From the sequence record NC_047769.1: DNA of 44,559 bases; one strand, given 5' to 3'. The notes under the pieces were generated by a model. It was not told the origin of the DNA and did not search any database. It saw only the letters and a list, made by a program, of their open reading frames with translations. Made by a program: the position numbers and the translations under genes. The first letter of the stretch is position 1; every line of letters starts with the position of its first letter. This document shows, piece after piece, positions 14,286 to 43,990 of the stretch. This DNA is from Escherichia phage AAPEc6.

Positions 14286-14308
14286 ATTTACTGGACACTA
14301 TAGAAGAG
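14286..14308 (+). promoter_or_regulatory. Phage promoter (ATTTACTGGACACTATAGAAGAG)
   Basis: Exact consensus. Confidence 0.85.
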
Positions 14309-14848: not shown

Positions 14849-15121
14849 ATGCCGACTATTGAATCTCGAATTGAACTGGACATTAGCTACAATGCAATCA
14901 CCAGACAGTATATTGGGGTTGCCTATGATTACAAAACTGGTGAGAAGCTAGTGGAGGTGAGACAATGGGATGACTATTGGTTAAGACAGAACCTCCATGA
15001 TGCGGTGTCCTCCTTCCTGAAGGAGTGGCCTACATGCGACCAAACTTCGACTTCGGAGCTACAGTATCGGAAGACAATAACCTGTTGCTGTGGCCAACTG
15101 AAGGTAATCGAATCGCTTTAA
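14849..15121 (+). CDS. Hypothetical protein (90 aa), 3' end overlaps the exonuclease gene
   Basis: ORF track; GGAGA RBS. Confidence 0.4.
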   Translation: MPTIESRIELDISYNAITRQYIGVAYDYKTGEKLVEVRQWDDYWLRQNLHDAVSSFLKEWPTCDQTSTSELQYRKTITCCCGQLKVIESL

Positions 15122-16062
15122 TAGATGCTGATATGTTACCTTACATCGTAGGGTATACAATCAGTGATATGACTTATGTACGAGCCACAACTCGTGTTAA
15201 GTCAGGACAAGTCCCATCAATTAAAGACACACCTGAGTGTAAGCAAGCGTGTGACCGTGTGAACTCCTTGCTTAACTCTTGGGTGTACGCAGCAGAATGT
15301 GATGCAGCTAAGTTATTCATGACGAAATCAGAAGCTAACTTCCGTGTCCGCCTAGCATTCACCAAACCTTATAAGGGTCAACGTAAGACCGAGAAGCCTC
15401 CGTTCTTCTATGAATTGCGAGAGCATCTCTTAGAGGTTCATGGTGCAATCTTGGCAGATGGAGAAGAGGCTGATGACCTCATGAGCATCGCACAATGGGA
15501 CAGCCACCGCCGCTTCCAGCAAGATACAGGTAACGAGTTCCCTATCGGTAGTCCAGAGCATAAAGCATTCTCTGATACTTGCATCGTTTCCTTGGATAAG
15601 GATTTGATGATTGTTCCCGGTTGGCACCTTCAGCCGGGACAAGAGAAGAAATGGGTAGAGCCTATGGGTTGGCTTGAGTTACGCCGTAAGGCTAATGGTC
15701 AGGTTAAAGACCTTAAAGGTGCTGGCCTCATGTTTCATTATGCACAGATGATTATCGGTGATGATATTGATAACTATGCTGGCATACCTGGACGTGGTGC
15801 TAAATACGCCTATGATCTTCTCAAAGATTGTAAGACAGAGAAAGAGTTGTACATGGCAGTACTTGGTGCTTACAAGGCTAAGTTCGGACATGGACAAGTT
15901 AAGATTAAGAATTACCGAGGTGGTTATCGTATCGGCAAGGCTTTTGACCTGATGCTCGAATGTGGTCGCCTAGCTCACATGGCAAGATTCAAAGGTGATA
16001 TATGGCGAGCCGATAAGAACCCAATCTTGTGGGGAGATGATGCGGAATGGTTAGCAAATTAA
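15034..16062 (+). CDS. 5'-3' exonuclease (FEN family, T7 gp6-like)
   Basis: Motifs IALIDADMLPY, GEEADDLMS, SLDKDLMIVPGWH, IIGDDIDNYAGIPG; ATG at 15034 after AAGGAG (ORF track GTG at 15025). Confidence 0.85.
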   Translation: MRPNFDFGATVSEDNNLLLWPTEGNRIALIDADMLPYIVGYTISDMTYVRATTRVKSGQVPSIKDTPECKQACDRVNSLLNSWVYAAECDAAKLFMTKSEANFRVRLAFTKPYKGQRKTEKPPFFYELREHLLEVHGAILADGEEADDLMSIAQWDSHRRFQQDTGNEFPIGSPEHKAFSDTCIVSLDKDLMIVPGWHLQPGQEKKWVEPMGWLELRRKANGQVKDLKGAGLMFHYAQMIIGDDIDNYAGIPGRGAKYAYDLLKDCKTEKELYMAVLGAYKAKFGHGQVKIKNYRGGYRIGKAFDLMLECGRLAHMARFKGDIWRADKNPILWGDDAEWLAN

Positions 16063-16457
16063 AATCATCGGAGGTAGCAGCTTATAAGAGGGAATTGCTA
16101 GAGAAGCAAGGATGGAAGTGCCCCCTATGTGGCGGCAGTCTCAAGGCTGTTACTCCTATAAACCGTGTACTTGACCATGACCATGAGACAGGATTCTGCC
16201 GTGCTGTTGTATGCCGAGGCTGCAATGGTGCAGAAGGAAAGATTAAGGGTGTTATCTCTGGTTATGGTAAGGCTGGTAACAACCGTTACTTCCAGCTTCA
16301 ATGGTTAGAGCGACTATATGAATACTGGAAGTTACATAGTACGCCTCAGACAGATAAGTTATATCACAAACACCAAACGGAGGCAGAGAAGCGCGAGGCT
16401 AAGAACCGTAAGGCACGCCTTGCTTATGCAAGAAAGAAGGAGGTTAAAGTTGGGTAA
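16047..16457 (+). CDS. Endonuclease VII-type Holliday junction resolvase (His-Me finger)
   Basis: Motif CPLCGG...DHDHETGFCRAVVCRGCNGAEG. Confidence 0.85.
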   Translation: MVSKLKSSEVAAYKRELLEKQGWKCPLCGGSLKAVTPINRVLDHDHETGFCRAVVCRGCNGAEGKIKGVISGYGKAGNNRYFQLQWLERLYEYWKLHSTPQTDKLYHKHQTEAEKREAKNRKARLAYARKKEVKVG

Positions 16458-17457
16458 GCTTCGCAGCTTGTACAAAGACTCCGAGGTACTTGATGCAATC
16501 GAGCAAGCTACCGACGAGAAAGGTAATGTTAATTACAATGAGATGGCACGTGTATTATCGTGTCACCCTGTGGGTAAGAAGATTACCCGCCAGTTGGCTC
16601 GATACTGGCATGGTCAATTCAAGAAGACCAAGAAGAATGGTGATTATTACCAGACCCTTCTGCAAGAAGATAAGCGTATCAAAGAAGAGCGTAAGCTCAG
16701 GACTCCTGACCGCTACGAGGATTTGGCTATTGTGCCATTGCCTGACTCGCCTCATCGAAGTGTACTGGTGATCCCTGATACTCATGCACCTTATGAGCAC
16801 CCAGATACCCTAGAGTTCCTTGCAGCCGTGGCAGCACGTTACCGTCCAGACACAGTGGTACACCTAGGAGATGAGGCAGACAAACATGCCTTGTCATTCC
16901 ACGATTCGGACCCAAATCTGGATAGTGCTGGCATGGAGTTAGAGAAGGCTCGTATCTTCATGCACAAATTGCACAAGATGTTCCCTGTGATGCGCCTGTG
17001 TCACTCCAACCACGGCTCTATGCACTTCCGTAAGGCAAGCGCCAAGGGCATCCCTGTGCAATACCTGCGCACCTACCGTGAAGTTTTCTTCCCGCAGGGA
17101 GGTGGCGACCAGTGGGATTGGCAGCATACGCACGTCCTTGAGTTGCCGAATGGTGAACAAGTGGCATTCAAGCATCAACCTGCTGGCTCTGTCCTAGCAG
17201 ATGCAGCGCATGAGCGTATGAACCTAGTTTGTGGTCACTTGCACGGTAAGATGTCTGTGGAGTACGCACGTAATACACATGAACAGTATTGGGCTGTGCA
17301 AGGTGGCTGCTTAATTGATGAGTCATCCCGTGCATTTGCCTATGGTCGTGAGTCTAAATACAAGCCAGCATTAGGTTGTGTGGTCATTCTGGAGGGTGTG
17401 CCTCACATTGTCCCGATGCAAACCAATAGCGACAACCGTTGGATTGGCAAGATTTAG
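16450..17457 (+). CDS. Calcineurin-like metallophosphoesterase
   Basis: Motifs IPDTHAP, HLGDEAD, CHSNHG (DxH / GDxxD / GNH pattern); proposed TTG start at 16450 after AAGGAGG (ORF track frame 16318..17457). Confidence 0.7.
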   Translation: MGKLRSLYKDSEVLDAIEQATDEKGNVNYNEMARVLSCHPVGKKITRQLARYWHGQFKKTKKNGDYYQTLLQEDKRIKEERKLRTPDRYEDLAIVPLPDSPHRSVLVIPDTHAPYEHPDTLEFLAAVAARYRPDTVVHLGDEADKHALSFHDSDPNLDSAGMELEKARIFMHKLHKMFPVMRLCHSNHGSMHFRKASAKGIPVQYLRTYREVFFPQGGGDQWDWQHTHVLELPNGEQVAFKHQPAGSVLADAAHERMNLVCGHLHGKMSVEYARNTHEQYWAVQGGCLIDESSRAFAYGRESKYKPALGCVVILEGVPHIVPMQTNSDNRWIGKI

Positions 17458-17557: not shown

Positions 17558-17821
17558 ATGTCACACTATGAATGTAAGAAGTGTCATAAGCGTTATGATT
17601 ACTGTACTTGTGGTCAAGAGAAAACATCTTTTAAAGTTGGAGACAAGGTATTTCGTAATGAAAAAGATTCGATTCCTTGGAATCAATACTGCAAAGAAGC
17701 TGGTATTGACCCTGATAGCCCTGTAACCATAGATGATATTGATGGCATTAACTTGTGCTTTCGTGAGGTGAGGGGTGCAGGTTGGGATTCCAAAAATTCA
17801 AACTTGCATCTGATAAGTTAG
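17558..17821 (+). CDS. Small Cys-rich protein (HYECKKCHKRYDYCTCG), probable zinc binding
   Basis: ORF track 17540 (GTG); ATG at 17558 after GGAGGA. Confidence 0.5.
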   Translation: MSHYECKKCHKRYDYCTCGQEKTSFKVGDKVFRNEKDSIPWNQYCKEAGIDPDSPVTIDDIDGINLCFREVRGAGWDSKNSNLHLIS

Positions 17822-18060
17822 ACAACAATATGGTAACTAAGCCTAAGCACTACGAGTTCTTTGATGGCGTAGAGGCAATCACTATCATTGCCCGCAGTAT
17901 GACCGAGAAGCAATTCGCTGGCTATTGCATGGGTAATGCTTTGAAGTACCGTTTACGTGCAGGTAAGAAGTTCAACACTGAAGAAGACCTGAAGAAAGCA
18001 GATTACTACAAAGAGTTATTCCAGAAGCATCGTCACGAATGTATTGATGAGGATATTTGA
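17782..18060 (+). CDS. Conserved phage protein, DUF3310-like (start uncertain)
   Basis: Pattern KPKHY...GNALKYRLRAGKK...EDLKKADYY recalled as typical of DUF3310; not verified. Confidence 0.45.
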   Translation: MGFQKFKLASDKLDNNMVTKPKHYEFFDGVEAITIIARSMTEKQFAGYCMGNALKYRLRAGKKFNTEEDLKKADYYKELFQKHRHECIDEDI

Positions 18061-18061
18061 T

Positions 18062-19009
18062 ATGAATATCTTTGAGTTCCTAGGTCTTCCAGAAGACCAC
18101 CGCAATCATCCATTCATGCTGGTGAAGCATCGCGGTGAAGTTCCTGAGAAGAAATTAACTTTTCCATGTTATGCACAGGTGAAACGAGATGGTATCTTTT
18201 CTGCTGTTGTTGTTCGCACTGATGGTGTCGTTGGCATTTTTGGTCGCACTGGTAAGAAATTGGCAAACACTGAAGGACTCGAACAAGCATTTGCTACCTT
18301 TCCGGTTGGCATTTATCTTGGTGAGCTTCAGTCTATGGCCGTTGATATCTACCTTGAGGCGCTCTCTGGGGTTGTGAACCCCAATCGCACTGAGCCACTT
18401 GATTTCATAGGCCAGCAGATTAAAGACAACCTGTATATCGACTTCTTCGATATGTTAACTATTAAGGCATTCCATGATGGATTCACTGCTGTTTCTTATC
18501 TCAAACGTTACGATGCTTTACATCGTCGTATCGGCGCTCATCTTAGCGGGTGCAACGCTATCCTTCCTATCACTCCTTGCCATAATGAGCGAGAAGTTGA
18601 AGCGTTTGCGCAAGAACAAATAGATGCAGGCCGGGAAGGTGCTGTGTTTAAACTGGACTGTGACTATGAAGCAGGCCATAAAGGTTATCGTCAGACTAAA
18701 GAAGTACGTAAGGTAACTTATGACCTTACTTGTATTGGCTTTGAAGAAGGTAAAGGCAAGTACAAAGGTAAGGTAGCTAACCTCATTTTCAAATGGAAAG
18801 GAGGCAAGACAATCAAAGCTATGTTAGGCAAAGGGTGGACTCATGCAGATGCAGAACAGATGTTCCACGATATTAAACATGGCGGACGATTGAATGTCAT
18901 TGGTAAAATCTTTGAAGTCAAAGGTCTTCAGGATTCAAGCAAGGGCAACATTCGTCTGCCCAAAGCGGGAGAATTAAGACATGACAAAGATGAACCAGAT
19001 TTCTTTTGA
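18062..19009 (+). CDS. ATP-dependent DNA ligase (T7 gp1.3-like)
   Basis: Adenylation motif I KRDG (AQVKRDGIF); ORF track 18044 (TTG); ATG at 18062 after GAGGA. Confidence 0.85.
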   Translation: MNIFEFLGLPEDHRNHPFMLVKHRGEVPEKKLTFPCYAQVKRDGIFSAVVVRTDGVVGIFGRTGKKLANTEGLEQAFATFPVGIYLGELQSMAVDIYLEALSGVVNPNRTEPLDFIGQQIKDNLYIDFFDMLTIKAFHDGFTAVSYLKRYDALHRRIGAHLSGCNAILPITPCHNEREVEAFAQEQIDAGREGAVFKLDCDYEAGHKGYRQTKEVRKVTYDLTCIGFEEGKGKYKGKVANLIFKWKGGKTIKAMLGKGWTHADAEQMFHDIKHGGRLNVIGKIFEVKGLQDSSKGNIRLPKAGELRHDKDEPDFF

Positions 19010-39492: not shown

Positions 39493-39570
39493 TAAGATAG
39501 CGCCGTTCTTTTGAGCGGCCTATTACTAGCCAATCTTCATAGGGAGGGTTGGAAAGTAATAGGAGATAGC

Positions 39571-41469
39571 ATGGCTAAATTAACCAAACCTAATACTGAA
39601 GGAATCTTGCATAAAGGACAATCTTTGTATGAGTACCTTGATGAGAGAGTTTTAACATCAAAGCCGTTTGGTGCTGCAGGTGACGCCACTACTGATGATA
39701 CGGAGGTTATAGCTGCTTCATTAAACTCTCAGAAAGCTGTCACAGTCTCAGATGGTGTATTCTCTAGCTCTGGTATTAATAGTAATTACTGTAACTTAGA
39801 CGGTAGGGGTAGTGGCGTGCTAAGTCACCGTTCCAGTACAGGTAACTACTTAGTATTTAACAATCTACGTGCAGGTCGTTTAAGTAATATTACGGTAGAA
39901 AGTAATAAGGCGACTGATACAACTCAGGGACAGCAGGTGTCTCTTGCTGGTGGAAGTGATGTTACTGTAAGTGACGTTAACTTCTCAAACGTTAAAGGTA
40001 CTGGTTTCAGTTTAATCGCATACCCTAATGATGCGCCACCTGATGGACTTATGATTAAAGGCATTCGAGGTAGCTATTCAGGCTATGCTACTAATAAGGC
40101 AGCAGGATGCGTACTTGCTGACTCCTCAGTTAACTCCCTCATAGATAACGTCATTGCTAAGAACTACCCTCAGTTCGGAGCAGTAGAGTTGAAAGGTACA
40201 GCCAGTTACAACATAGTCAGTAATGTTATAGGGGCAGATTGCCAGCATGTAACTTACAACGGCACTGAAGGGCCAATAGCTCCTTCTAATAACCTTATCA
40301 AGGGGATGATGGCTAATAACCCTAAGTATGCAGCGGTTGTTGCAGGCAAAGGAAGTACGAACTTAATCTCAGACGTGCTCGTAGATTACTCAACTTCTGA
40401 TGCTAGGCAGGCTCATGGTGTTACAGTAGAGGGTTCTGATAACGTCATAAATAATGTACTTATGTCAGGATGTGATGGTACTAACTCTTTAGGGCAAGGG
40501 CAGACTGCTACAATTGCACGCTTTATAGGTACAGCTAATAACAACTATGCGTCTGTATTTCCTAGCTACAGTGCTACAGGTGTTATTACTTTCGAATCCG
40601 GCTCTACCCGTAACTTCGTAGAGGTAAAGCACCCTGGCAGGAGAAACGACCTTCTCAGTTCTGCTAGTACTATTGACGGTGCAGCTACTATTGACGGCAC
40701 TAGTAATAGTAACGTAGTGCACGCACCTGCCTTAGGGCAGTACATAGGTAGTATGTCAGGTAGGTTCGAATGGCGGATTAAGTCCATGTCACTCCCTTCA
40801 GGCGTTCTTACTTCTGCTGATAAGTACAGAATGCTTGGAGATGGTGCTGTGTCATTAGCTGTAGGTGGGGGCACTTCTTCTCAAGTTCGCCTATTTACTT
40901 CTGATGGTACTTCTCGGGCAGTGTCCCTCACCAACGGTAACGTGCGTCTTTCTACCAGTAGCACAGGCTTTTTGCAGTTAGGTGCTGATGCAATGACCCC
41001 AGACAGTACTGGTACATACGCATTAGGTTCCGCCAGCCGAGCATGGTCTGGCGGTTTTACTCAAGCAGCATTCACTGTTACCTCAGATGCTCGGTGTAAA
41101 ACAGAACCTCTTACTATCTCAGATGCCTTACTGGATGCTTGGTCTGAAGTTGACTTTGTGCAGTTTCAGTATTTGGATCGTGTTGAGGAGAAGGGTGCAG
41201 ACTCAGCTAGATGGCACTTCGGTATCATCGCTCAGCGAGCTAAGGAGGCTTTCGAACGTCACGGTATAGATGCACATCGCTATGGCTTCTTGTGCTTCGA
41301 CAGTTGGGATGATGTATACGAGGAAGATGCCAATGGCTCTCGTAAACTGATTACACCAGCAGGTTCCCGCTACGGTATTCGTTACGAGGAAGTACTGATA
41401 TTAGAGGCTGCGTTGATGCGGCGGACTATTAAGCGTATGCAGGAAGCACTAGCTTCCCTGCCTAAGTAA
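39571..41469 (+). CDS. Tailspike capsule depolymerase, beta-helix lyase-like, with C-terminal intramolecular chaperone domain
   Basis: 632 aa from the ATG at 39571 (AGGAGA RBS); repetitive N/V/G/S beta-helix-like coils; C-terminal TSDARCK...HFGIIAQ shared with the next tailspike. Confidence 0.8.
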   Translation: MAKLTKPNTEGILHKGQSLYEYLDERVLTSKPFGAAGDATTDDTEVIAASLNSQKAVTVSDGVFSSSGINSNYCNLDGRGSGVLSHRSSTGNYLVFNNLRAGRLSNITVESNKATDTTQGQQVSLAGGSDVTVSDVNFSNVKGTGFSLIAYPNDAPPDGLMIKGIRGSYSGYATNKAAGCVLADSSVNSLIDNVIAKNYPQFGAVELKGTASYNIVSNVIGADCQHVTYNGTEGPIAPSNNLIKGMMANNPKYAAVVAGKGSTNLISDVLVDYSTSDARQAHGVTVEGSDNVINNVLMSGCDGTNSLGQGQTATIARFIGTANNNYASVFPSYSATGVITFESGSTRNFVEVKHPGRRNDLLSSASTIDGAATIDGTSNSNVVHAPALGQYIGSMSGRFEWRIKSMSLPSGVLTSADKYRMLGDGAVSLAVGGGTSSQVRLFTSDGTSRAVSLTNGNVRLSTSSTGFLQLGADAMTPDSTGTYALGSASRAWSGGFTQAAFTVTSDARCKTEPLTISDALLDAWSEVDFVQFQYLDRVEEKGADSARWHFGIIAQRAKEAFERHGIDAHRYGFLCFDSWDDVYEEDANGSRKLITPAGSRYGIRYEEVLILEAALMRRTIKRMQEALASLPK

Positions 41470-41554
41470 GCAACAGGCAGTGCGTAAGCACTGCTTTTAG
41501 CGCAACTTTTCTTAAAGGTTATCATGATGGTAGCCTTTCAGAAAAGGAGGTTAC

Positions 41555-43990
41555 ATGATTCAAAGACTAGGTTCTTCATTAGTTAAATTCAAGAGTAAAA
41601 TAGCAGGTGCAATCTGGCGTAACTTGGATGACAAGCTCACCGAGGTTGTATCGCTTAAAGATTTTGGAGCCAAAGGTGATGGTAAGACAAACGACCAAGA
41701 TGCAGTAAATGCAGCGATGGCTTCAGGTAAGAGAATTGACGGTGCTGGTGCTACTTACAAAGTATCATCTTTACCTGACATGGAGCGATTCTATAACACC
41801 CGCTTCGTATGGGAACGTTTAGCAGGTCAACCTCTTTACTATGTGAGTAAAGGTTTTATCAATGGTGAACTATATAAAATCACGGATAACCCTTATTACA
41901 ATGCTTGGCCTCAAGACAAAGCGTTTGTATATGAGAACGTGATATATGCACCTTACATGGGTAGTGACCGTCATGGTGTTAGTCGTCTGCATGTATCATG
42001 GGTTAAGTCTGGTGACGATGGTCAAACATGGTCTACTCCAGAGTGGTTAACTGATCTGCATCCAGATTACCCTACAGTGAACTATCATTGTATGAGTATG
42101 GGTGTATGTCGCAACCGCCTGTTTGCCATGATTGAAACACGTACTTTAGCCAAGAACGCACTAACCAATTGTGCATTGTGGGATCGCCCTATGTCTCGTA
42201 GTCTGCATCTTACTGGTGGTATCACTAAGGCTGCAAATCAGAGATATGCAACAATCCATGTACCTGATCACGGACTCTTCGTGGGCGATTTTGTTAACTT
42301 CTCTAATTCTGCGGTAACAGGTGTATCAGGTGATATGACTGTTGCAACGGTAATAGATAAGGACAACTTCACGGTTCTTACACCTAACCAGCAGACTTCA
42401 GATTTGAATAACGATGGAAAGAGTTGGCACATGGGTACTTCTTTCCATAAGTCTCCATGGCGTAAGACAGATCTTGGTCTAATCCCTCGTGTCACAGAGG
42501 TGCATAGCTTTGCTACTATTGATAACAATGGCTTTGTTATGGGCTATCATCAAGGTGATGTAGCTCCACGAGAAGTTGGTCTTTTCTACTTCCCTGATGC
42601 TTTCAATAGCCCATCTAATTATGTTCGTCGTCAGATACCATCTGAGTATGAACCAGATGCGGCAGAGCCATGCATCAAGTACTATGACGGTGTATTATAC
42701 CTTATCACTCGTGGCACTCGTGGTGACAGACTTGGAAGCTCTTTGCATCGTAGCAGAGATATAGGTCAGACTTGGGAGTCACTGAGATTTCCACATAATG
42801 TTCATCATACTACCTTACCTTTTGCTAAAGTAGGAGATGACCTTATTATGTTTGGTTCAGAACGTGCAGAAAATGAATGGGAAGCAGGTGCACCAGATGA
42901 TCGTTACAAGGCATCTTATCCTCGTACCTTCTATGCACGATTGAATGTAAACAATTGGAATGCAGATGATATTGAATGGGTTAACATCACAGACCAAATC
43001 TATCAAGGTGACATTGTGAACTCTAGTGTAGGTGTAGGTTCTGTTGTAGTTAAAGACAGCTACATTTACTATATCTTTGGTGGAGAAAACCATTTCAACC
43101 CAATGACTTATGGTGACAACAAAGATAGAGACCCATTTAAAGGTCATGGACACCCTACTGATATATACTGCTATAAGATGCAGATTGCAAATGACAATCG
43201 TGTATCTCGTAAGTTTACATATGGTGCAACTCCGGGTCAAGCTATACCTACTTTCATGGGTACTGATGGAATACGAAATATCCCTGCACCTTTGTATTTC
43301 TCAGATAACATTGTTACAGAGGATACTAAAGTTGGACACTTAACACTTAAAGCAAGCACAAGTTCCAATATACGATCTGAAGTGCAGATGGAAGGTGAAT
43401 ATGGCTTTATTGGCAAGTCTGTTCCAAAGGACAACCCAACTGGTCAACGTTTGATTATTTGTGGTGGAGAAGAGACTTCGTCCTCTTCAGGTGCACAGAT
43501 AACTTTGCACGGCTCTAATTCAAGTAATGCTAAGCGTATCACTTATAACGGAAATGAGCACCTATTCCAAGGTGCACCAATCATGCCTGCTGTAGATAAC
43601 CAGTTTGCTGCTGGTGGACCCAGTAACCGATTCACGACCATCTACCTAGGTAGTGACCCTGTTACAACTTCAGATGCTGACCACAAGTACGGTATCTCTA
43701 GTATTAATACCAAGGTGTTAAAGGCTTGGAGCAGGGTTGGTTTTAAACAGTATGGTTTGAATAGTGAAGCAGAGAGGAACCTTGATAGCATACACTTCGG
43801 TGTCTTGGCTCAGGATATTGTAGCTGCTTTTGAAGCTGAAGGGTTAGATGCCATTAAGTATGGAATTGTGTCCTTCGAAGAAGGTAGGTACGGTGTGAGG
43901 TATAGTGAAGTTCTAACCCTAGAGGCTGCTTATACTCGTTATCGTTTAGACAAGTTAGAGGAGATGTATGCCACTAATAGAATCAGTTAA
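41555..43990 (+). CDS. Tailspike endosialidase (endo-N-acetylneuraminidase) with C-terminal intramolecular chaperone domain
   Basis: 811 aa; two Asp-box motifs (SGDDGQTW, SRDIGQTW); C-terminal TSDADHK...HFGVLAQ; AAGGAGG RBS. Confidence 0.88.
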   Translation: MIQRLGSSLVKFKSKIAGAIWRNLDDKLTEVVSLKDFGAKGDGKTNDQDAVNAAMASGKRIDGAGATYKVSSLPDMERFYNTRFVWERLAGQPLYYVSKGFINGELYKITDNPYYNAWPQDKAFVYENVIYAPYMGSDRHGVSRLHVSWVKSGDDGQTWSTPEWLTDLHPDYPTVNYHCMSMGVCRNRLFAMIETRTLAKNALTNCALWDRPMSRSLHLTGGITKAANQRYATIHVPDHGLFVGDFVNFSNSAVTGVSGDMTVATVIDKDNFTVLTPNQQTSDLNNDGKSWHMGTSFHKSPWRKTDLGLIPRVTEVHSFATIDNNGFVMGYHQGDVAPREVGLFYFPDAFNSPSNYVRRQIPSEYEPDAAEPCIKYYDGVLYLITRGTRGDRLGSSLHRSRDIGQTWESLRFPHNVHHTTLPFAKVGDDLIMFGSERAENEWEAGAPDDRYKASYPRTFYARLNVNNWNADDIEWVNITDQIYQGDIVNSSVGVGSVVVKDSYIYYIFGGENHFNPMTYGDNKDRDPFKGHGHPTDIYCYKMQIANDNRVSRKFTYGATPGQAIPTFMGTDGIRNIPAPLYFSDNIVTEDTKVGHLTLKASTSSNIRSEVQMEGEYGFIGKSVPKDNPTGQRLIICGGEETSSSSGAQITLHGSNSSNAKRITYNGNEHLFQGAPIMPAVDNQFAAGGPSNRFTTIYLGSDPVTTSDADHKYGISSINTKVLKAWSRVGFKQYGLNSEAERNLDSIHFGVLAQDIVAAFEAEGLDAIKYGIVSFEEGRYGVRYSEVLTLEAAYTRYRLDKLEEMYATNRIS

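Follow-up and report, generated by a model that had tools for sequence, protein, structure and literature searches.

An intact metallophosphoesterase in the DNA-metabolism module of Escherichia phage AAPEc6, a remote relative of mycobacteriophage Bxb1 gp47 and a candidate DNA phosphodiesterase

The studied members of the metallophosphoesterase (MPE) family considered here are those of mycobacteriophages only. The recombination directionality factor (RDF) of Bxb1, gp47, is one of them, and Savinov et al. (2012) reportedly connected this protein with replication. Gp47 has been described as a replication-linked MPE with nuclease activity; its exonuclease activity is weak, and contamination was not ruled out by the authors (PMC11795197). 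Homologues of gp47 are also known from phages that have no serine integrase, and the genes are located between polymerase and primase (PMC1470463). A further member, gp48 of the cluster-A phage A10ZJ24, acts in vitro as a phosphodiesterase and breaks down linear, plasmid, and genomic DNA. Mutants in its motifs are inactive, the protein is toxic to the host, and the DNA of a gp48 deletion phage is not replicated in M. tuberculosis. The same study aligned gp48 with the MPE of Bxb1 and described it as counter-defensive, acting through degradation of host DNA (PMC12287305). Other phage-encoded members of the MPE superfamily are lambda phosphatase (NinI) and T5 A1, which belong to PHROG 246 and PHROG 1745, respectively, whereas the protein described here belongs to PHROG 221.

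The gene encoding this protein is found in Escherichia phage AAPEc6 (sequence record NC_047769.1). The whole stretch of DNA that was analysed, 44,559 nucleotides, is referred to below as the window, and all positions are counted from its first letter. The region is 98.5–99% identical to Escherichia phages K1-5 and 6948 (Autographiviridae, Molineuxvirinae, Vectrevirus). The large open reading frames (ORFs) of the window match a near-complete K1-5-type genome, including RNA polymerase, primase-helicase, DNA polymerase, structural genes, terminase, and two tailspikes. All ORFs of at least 300 aa could be assigned by PHROG, Pfam, or K1-5 annotation, one of them to a family of unknown function (PHROG 4571) and the others to RNA polymerase, primase-helicase, DNA polymerase, exonuclease, MPE, ligase, and structural or packaging proteins. 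The tailspike genes are consecutive (39511–41469 and 41555–43990; PHROG 14895 and 1171, respectively). A dual-tailspike arrangement is known for K1-5-type phages, and its presence at 39511–43990 indicates that the window is nearly a whole phage genome.

Read from the window, the MPE gene extends on the plus strand from a TTG codon at 16450 to a TAG stop at 17457 and encodes 335 aa. This agrees with the preliminary description of the window, in which a calcineurin-like MPE of about 335 aa, apparently with a TTG start, had been recognised at these positions. An AAGGAGG Shine-Dalgarno site precedes the TTG by 6 nt, and in an alignment of 27 homologues the conserved N-terminus begins exactly at this codon. 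Consequently, TTG 16450 is regarded as the real start. The orthologous genes start with GTG in Proteus phage PM85, with ATG in Aeromonas phage Aer_P220, and with TTG in Klebsiella phage phiKpS2, in each case behind a Shine-Dalgarno site. An ATG at 16318, taken as the start in a mechanically generated ORF list, was rejected, since the stretch gained in this way lies over the endonuclease VII gene in a different frame and adds residues that show no conservation. In K1-5, gene 22 (EPKV1_gp25) has the same coordinates as the window MPE and is annotated as 'metallo-phosphoesterase', and the window protein is 99.7% identical to a 'phosphoesterase' of phage 6948. Public records already contain the gene together with its start codon and annotation, and for the window itself nothing new follows.

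The coordinates of the gene, its motifs, and its neighbours are collected in Table 1. The preliminary description had placed the MPE gene in a replication module, between endonuclease VII and the ligase. The assignment to a replication and DNA-metabolism module is borne out; the genes follow the order exonuclease, endonuclease VII, MPE, kinase, and ligase. The endonuclease VII gene is indeed directly adjacent, and its last 8 nt overlap the start of the MPE gene, which suggests translational coupling. The ligase gene, however, is not adjacent: a DUF3310 gene and a promoter lie between it and the MPE gene, so the position given is only approximately right. SP6-type promoters were matched eight times in the window, with 0 matches expected by chance. 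All of them are on the plus strand, and the one at 17452, which deviates from the SP6 consensus at 2 positions, comes nearest to it.

The neighbourhood is conserved beyond AAPEc6. The same gene order, with either DUF3310 or polynucleotide kinase (PNK) as the kinase, is found in K1-5, phage 6948, and Aeromonas phage Aer_P220, and the sparser annotation of Proteus phage PM85 (exonuclease, MPE, ligase) agrees with it. In Drulisvirus, the MPE gene is located one small ORF 3' of the DNA polymerase gene, and in Bxb1 it lies between polymerase and primase. The location in a replication or recombination module that goes with PHROG 221 is thus also that of the window MPE. A separate observation concerns the DUF3310 'nucleotide kinase' gene (gene 23), which measures 504 nt in K1-5 and phage 6948. 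In the window it appears as two overlapping ORFs, 17558–17821 and 17782–18060, because one A has been lost from a run of six (A-run at about 17792–17796). Either the loss is a sequencing error, or the frameshift or slippery site is real.

Table 1. Positions of the MPE gene, its domains and motifs, and neighbouring features in the window
Feature	Position	Strand	Remarks
SP6-type promoter	14286..14306	+	heads the unit gp18, gp19, exonuclease, endonuclease VII, MPE
5'-3' exonuclease gene (T7 gp6-like)	15025..16062	+	upstream, in the same transcription unit as MPE
Endonuclease VII gene	16047..16457	+	Pfam Endonuclease_7 at 1.5e-12
Shine-Dalgarno AAGGAGG	16437..16443	+	read from sequence; 6 nt 5' of the TTG start
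MPE gene, 335 aa + TAG stop	16450..17457	+	K1-5 gene 22 (EPKV1_gp25)
N-terminal helical domain, aa 1-98	16450..16743	+	helices at residues 10-20, 29-37, 47-57, 71-80
MPE catalytic domain, aa 101-335	16750..17454	+	
Motif I, D110-T-H112, metal ligands	16777..16785	+	invariant in alignment A1; codons read
Motif II, G140-D141-E-A-D144-K-H146	16867..16887	+	alignment A1; codons read
Motif III, S186-N187-H188	17005..17013	+	alignment A1; codons read
Motif IV, H242	17173..17175	+	alignment A1; codons read
Motif V, G262-H263-L-H265	17233..17244	+	alignment A1; codons read
SP6-type promoter overlapping the MPE stop codon	17452..17472	+	starts the next unit (gene 23, ligase)
DUF3310 'nucleotide kinase' gene	17558-18060		between MPE and ligase
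ATP-dependent DNA ligase gene	18062..19009	+	Pfam DNA_ligase_A_M, DNA_ligase_OB_2; two genes 3' of MPE
SP6-type promoters (eight matches)	1801, 8182, 8873, 12371, 14286, 17452, 22484, 39469	+	core GACACTATAGAAG, with variants

All five MPE motifs are intact in the window protein and invariant in 28 homologues (alignment A1), so the catalytic residues expected of such an enzyme are present. Among the motifs listed in the preliminary description, DxH and GDxxD are found as stated, while the third is SNH rather than GNH. The histidine H146 in motif II is a family-specific invariant. Compared with the minimal phosphodiesterases MJ0936 and YfcE, the window protein also has large inserts that are specific to its family; one of them is the HALSFHDSDPNLDSAG segment, which follows motif II and is invariant. 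The protein barely exceeds the cut-off of the general Pfam model Metallophos (PF00149; 21.7 bits against 21.5). Its match to PHROG 221, 'metallo-phosphoesterase', reaches 4.3e-105 and covers residues 1–334, i.e., the whole length.

PHROG 221 also contains Bxb1 gp47 and its cluster-A relatives L5 gp54 and A10ZJ24 gp48. Gp47 matches the PHROG 221 profile at 4.5e-116, over its MPE part. When the family profile of the window MPE was compared with gp47 using hhalign, a probability of 96.8% and an E-value of 3e-10 were obtained over 199 columns that include motifs I–V. Since pairwise identity is only 19%, the relationship is remote but specific, and the shared PHROG is implicit in the PHROG database already. 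The genomic setting is similar too, as the gp47 gene also has genes for polymerase, primase, endonuclease VII, and exonuclease around it. Differences are nevertheless clear. The mycobacteriophage proteins consist of the bare domain of about 255 aa and lack the N-terminal helical domain. Motif I reads D-x-Q in Bxb1 gp47 and the canonical D-x-H in the K1-5 protein. This difference and the low identity mean that the substrate of the window MPE could differ from that of gp47. Furthermore, the RDF role of gp47 depends on a serine integrase, and no integrase is annotated in the examined K1-5 region or found among the window ORFs of 300 aa or more.

The structure of the protein was modelled with AlphaFold2 from the 28-sequence alignment. 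The model is confident (pLDDT 82.8) and consists of a helical N-terminal domain (residues 1–98) and an MPE domain (residues 101–335) with the alpha/beta sandwich fold of these enzymes. Searches of all PDB chains with the single sequence, a 28-sequence profile, and a 44-sequence profile of the MPE domain returned no MPE relative, and there is no closely related solved structure. In the fold listing, MJ0936 stands at 13.3, YfcE at 13.1, and the proofreading exonuclease DP1 of PolD at 13.0. Polymerase B-subunits, Vps29, and LpxH are listed as well, Mre11 and SbcD follow at about 11, and protein phosphatases and cyclic-nucleotide phosphodiesterases are found at 9.9 or below. MJ0936 and E. coli YfcE are minimal phosphodiesterases of about 165–185 aa, and their identity to the window MPE is 12–13%. 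Mre11/SbcD and the editing exonuclease PolD DP1 have in common with the window MPE the fold, the five motifs, and the catalytic histidine that follows the asparagine of motif III. However, profile searches of the PDB found no relationship to them at the sequence level. Unlike these enzymes, the window MPE has neither a capping domain nor an OB domain, and no Rad50/SbcC or DP2 partner is encoded among the window ORFs of 300 aa or more. The DNA polymerase of the phage is a large PolA-type enzyme. By analogy with T7-like polymerases, it should carry its own proofreading domain; consequently, an editing role for the MPE is not obviously needed.

The N-terminal domain is possibly a tri-helical helix-turn-helix (HTH) or Myb-like DNA-binding module, although this assignment is tentative. 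A role in protein tethering or, as we infer, in DNA binding is plausible. None of 21 members gave a Pfam match beyond noise for this domain, and hhalign comparison with the N-termini of the HTH-bearing homologues P0137 and P0143 was not significant. With the family profile of this domain, calmodulin's fourth EF-hand was matched marginally (E 0.007) at residues 3–39 (window 16456–16566; FTDEEV...DG.VDY..M), and the match was rejected as functional. It is probably not a calcium site, because the calcium-ligand positions 1 and 5 are occupied by Ala and Lys in the window protein. In phage K1E, the gene is recorded as two proteins, BFVD A0A2I4Q1Z7 (104 aa) and A0A2I4Q1Y4 (237 aa), which correspond to the N-terminal helical domain and the MPE domain and are each 99% identical to the window protein. 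The split may reflect a frameshift or an annotation split, and it fits the two-module architecture of the protein.

The family is large and under strong constraint. At E ≤ 1e-3, 2805 homologues of the window MPE were collected, and a full scan of 1.8 billion metagenomic cluster representatives yielded 3131 relatives. Most of the latter are just the MPE domain, about 235 aa in length, which identifies the N-terminal extension as an add-on of the Autographiviridae-type members. According to tblastn, the gene is present in at least 642 sequenced phage genomes. They include SP6-like and KP34-like (Drulisvirus) phages, podophages of Pectobacterium, Pseudomonas, Aeromonas, and Vibrio, a Pelagibacter podophage, and a crAss-like Cellulophaga phage. 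No MPE homologue is present in T7, a phage that relies on endonuclease I; the best six-frame E-value there is 0.67.

Several homologues carry additional domains. Pfam HTH domains occur at the N-terminus of P0143 and P0185. Inteins interrupt P0156, P0266, P0121, and P0154, some of them with LAGLIDADG homing-endonuclease domains; that of P0156 is inserted directly after the DLH of motif I and that of P0121 directly after the GDE of motif II. Proteins of replication and repair are typical hosts of inteins, which sit in their conserved catalytic sites. Taken together, the HTH-type N-termini and the inteins in catalytic motifs point to nucleic-acid metabolism. In Pseudomonas phage PA28, the tblastn match is in two pieces spread over 1.9 kb and may represent an intein too.

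With moderate confidence, the window MPE is proposed to be a binuclear-metal DNA phosphodiesterase of the Bxb1 gp47 type, i.e., an endo- and/or exonuclease, that serves phage DNA metabolism. The DNA substrate and the biological role are inferred, and membership in the phage family of gp47 makes a DNA-processing enzyme more likely than a destroyer of immune signalling nucleotides. Expression of the MPE would fall in the middle (DNA-metabolism) period, on one transcript with the 5'-3' exonuclease and endonuclease VII, and its translation is probably coupled to that of endonuclease VII. The phosphodiesterase domain, with its two-metal centre, may be held at DNA or at another replication protein by the small helical domain that precedes it. 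The most likely activity would be endo- and/or exonucleolytic cleavage of DNA phosphodiester bonds in replication or recombination intermediates, in host DNA, or in both, in support of phage DNA synthesis. The literature found on the MPEs of SP6-, K1-5-, and KP34-type phages consists of genome descriptions, with no functional study among them.

The genes surrounding the MPE could also be interpreted in terms of DNA or RNA end healing or of the nucleotide pool. In such a pathway, the enzyme would not cut DNA backbones but would remove 3'-phosphates or 2',3'-cyclic phosphates at broken ends, or hydrolyse nucleotides, alongside the kinase and the ligase. In K1-5, the MPE gene adjoins the DUF3310 'nucleotide kinase' gene and the DNA ligase gene; in Aer_P220, it adjoins genes for a 3'-phosphatase/5'-polynucleotide kinase, an ATPase, and a ligase; and PNK is part of the Drulisvirus module too. 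Searches of NCBIfam gave sub-threshold local matches only, to PdeM and YfcE (the latter at 11 bits against a cut-off of 56), and hence no membership. PdeM (TIGR04123) is a ligase-associated endonuclease of the DNA-damage response, so the match agrees with end healing, but its 19.3 bits fall far short of the cut-off of 150, and just 33 residues are covered. Moreover, the characterised members of PHROG 221 degrade DNA. The MPE is also kept by phages whose PNK has its own 3'-phosphatase, such as Drulisvirus and Aer_P220, and is therefore no simple substitute for PNK. An end-healing or nucleotide-pool enzyme is accordingly considered unlikely.

A bolder and even less probable suggestion is that the protein is a counter-defence factor. 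It would then either hydrolyse immune nucleotide signals or wreck host DNA in the manner of A10ZJ24 gp48, so that defence genes are not expressed, with the N-terminal domain directing the targeting. If this were true, a widespread and conserved anti-defence function would exist across several Autographiviridae lineages.

The narrower version of this idea, an anti-defence phosphodiesterase directed against signalling nucleotides (cyclic di- and trinucleotides, cyclic mononucleotides, gcADPR, or (p)ppGpp), must be rated as very improbable. The preliminary description had raised the degradation of defence-associated signalling nucleotides as a speculative role, and none of the results speaks for it. 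The protein falls into PHROG 221 together with Bxb1 gp47, and the PADLOC models, which include MPE effectors of anti-phage defence, gave no family at E ≤ 1. Such a role has been speculated on for the phage MPE T5 A1 on the basis of comparative genomics (PMC7824862), and the PHROG 221 member A10ZJ24 gp48 has been called counter-defensive, though by way of host DNA degradation. T5 A1, however, was rejected as a relative of the window MPE: hhalign with the family profile gave a probability of 3% over 78 columns, and the two proteins are in different PHROGs. The nearest characterised relatives act on DNA, and the HTH-type N-termini of homologues indicate a nucleic-acid polymer as the target. The position in the replication module is also fixed in Molineuxvirinae, Slopekvirinae, an Aeromonas phage of unassigned subfamily, and mycobacteriophages, whereas we would expect anti-defence genes in variable early regions. 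The known enzymes of the anti-signalling type, Acb1 and Apyc1, also differ from the window MPE in fold.

The least probable alternative is a Ser/Thr/Tyr protein phosphatase similar to lambda phosphatase, with host or phage phosphoproteins as substrates, in line with the action on host phosphoproteins that the preliminary description had mentioned and that no result supports: some homologues are annotated as 'protein phosphatase 2a-like', and the comparison with NinI yielded a partial, superfamily-level match (hhalign 53%, 80 columns), but this alignment covers motifs I–III only and ends there, NinI is in another PHROG, and the PPP signatures GDxHG, GDxVDRG, and GNHE are absent from the window protein, in which the corresponding motifs read PDTHAPY, GDEADKH, and SNHG.

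The proposal of a DNA phosphodiesterase of the gp47 type has consequences beyond AAPEc6. The MPE family is widespread, and its carriers include many podophages of Klebsiella, E. coli, and Pseudomonas that are therapeutic candidates. The link to Bxb1 gp47 gives the gene of SP6-, K1-5-, and KP34-type phages an expected function, namely a DNA nuclease that would be required for efficient replication of phage DNA or for host-DNA breakdown. This expectation would be relevant wherever genomes of these phage types are to be minimised or engineered.
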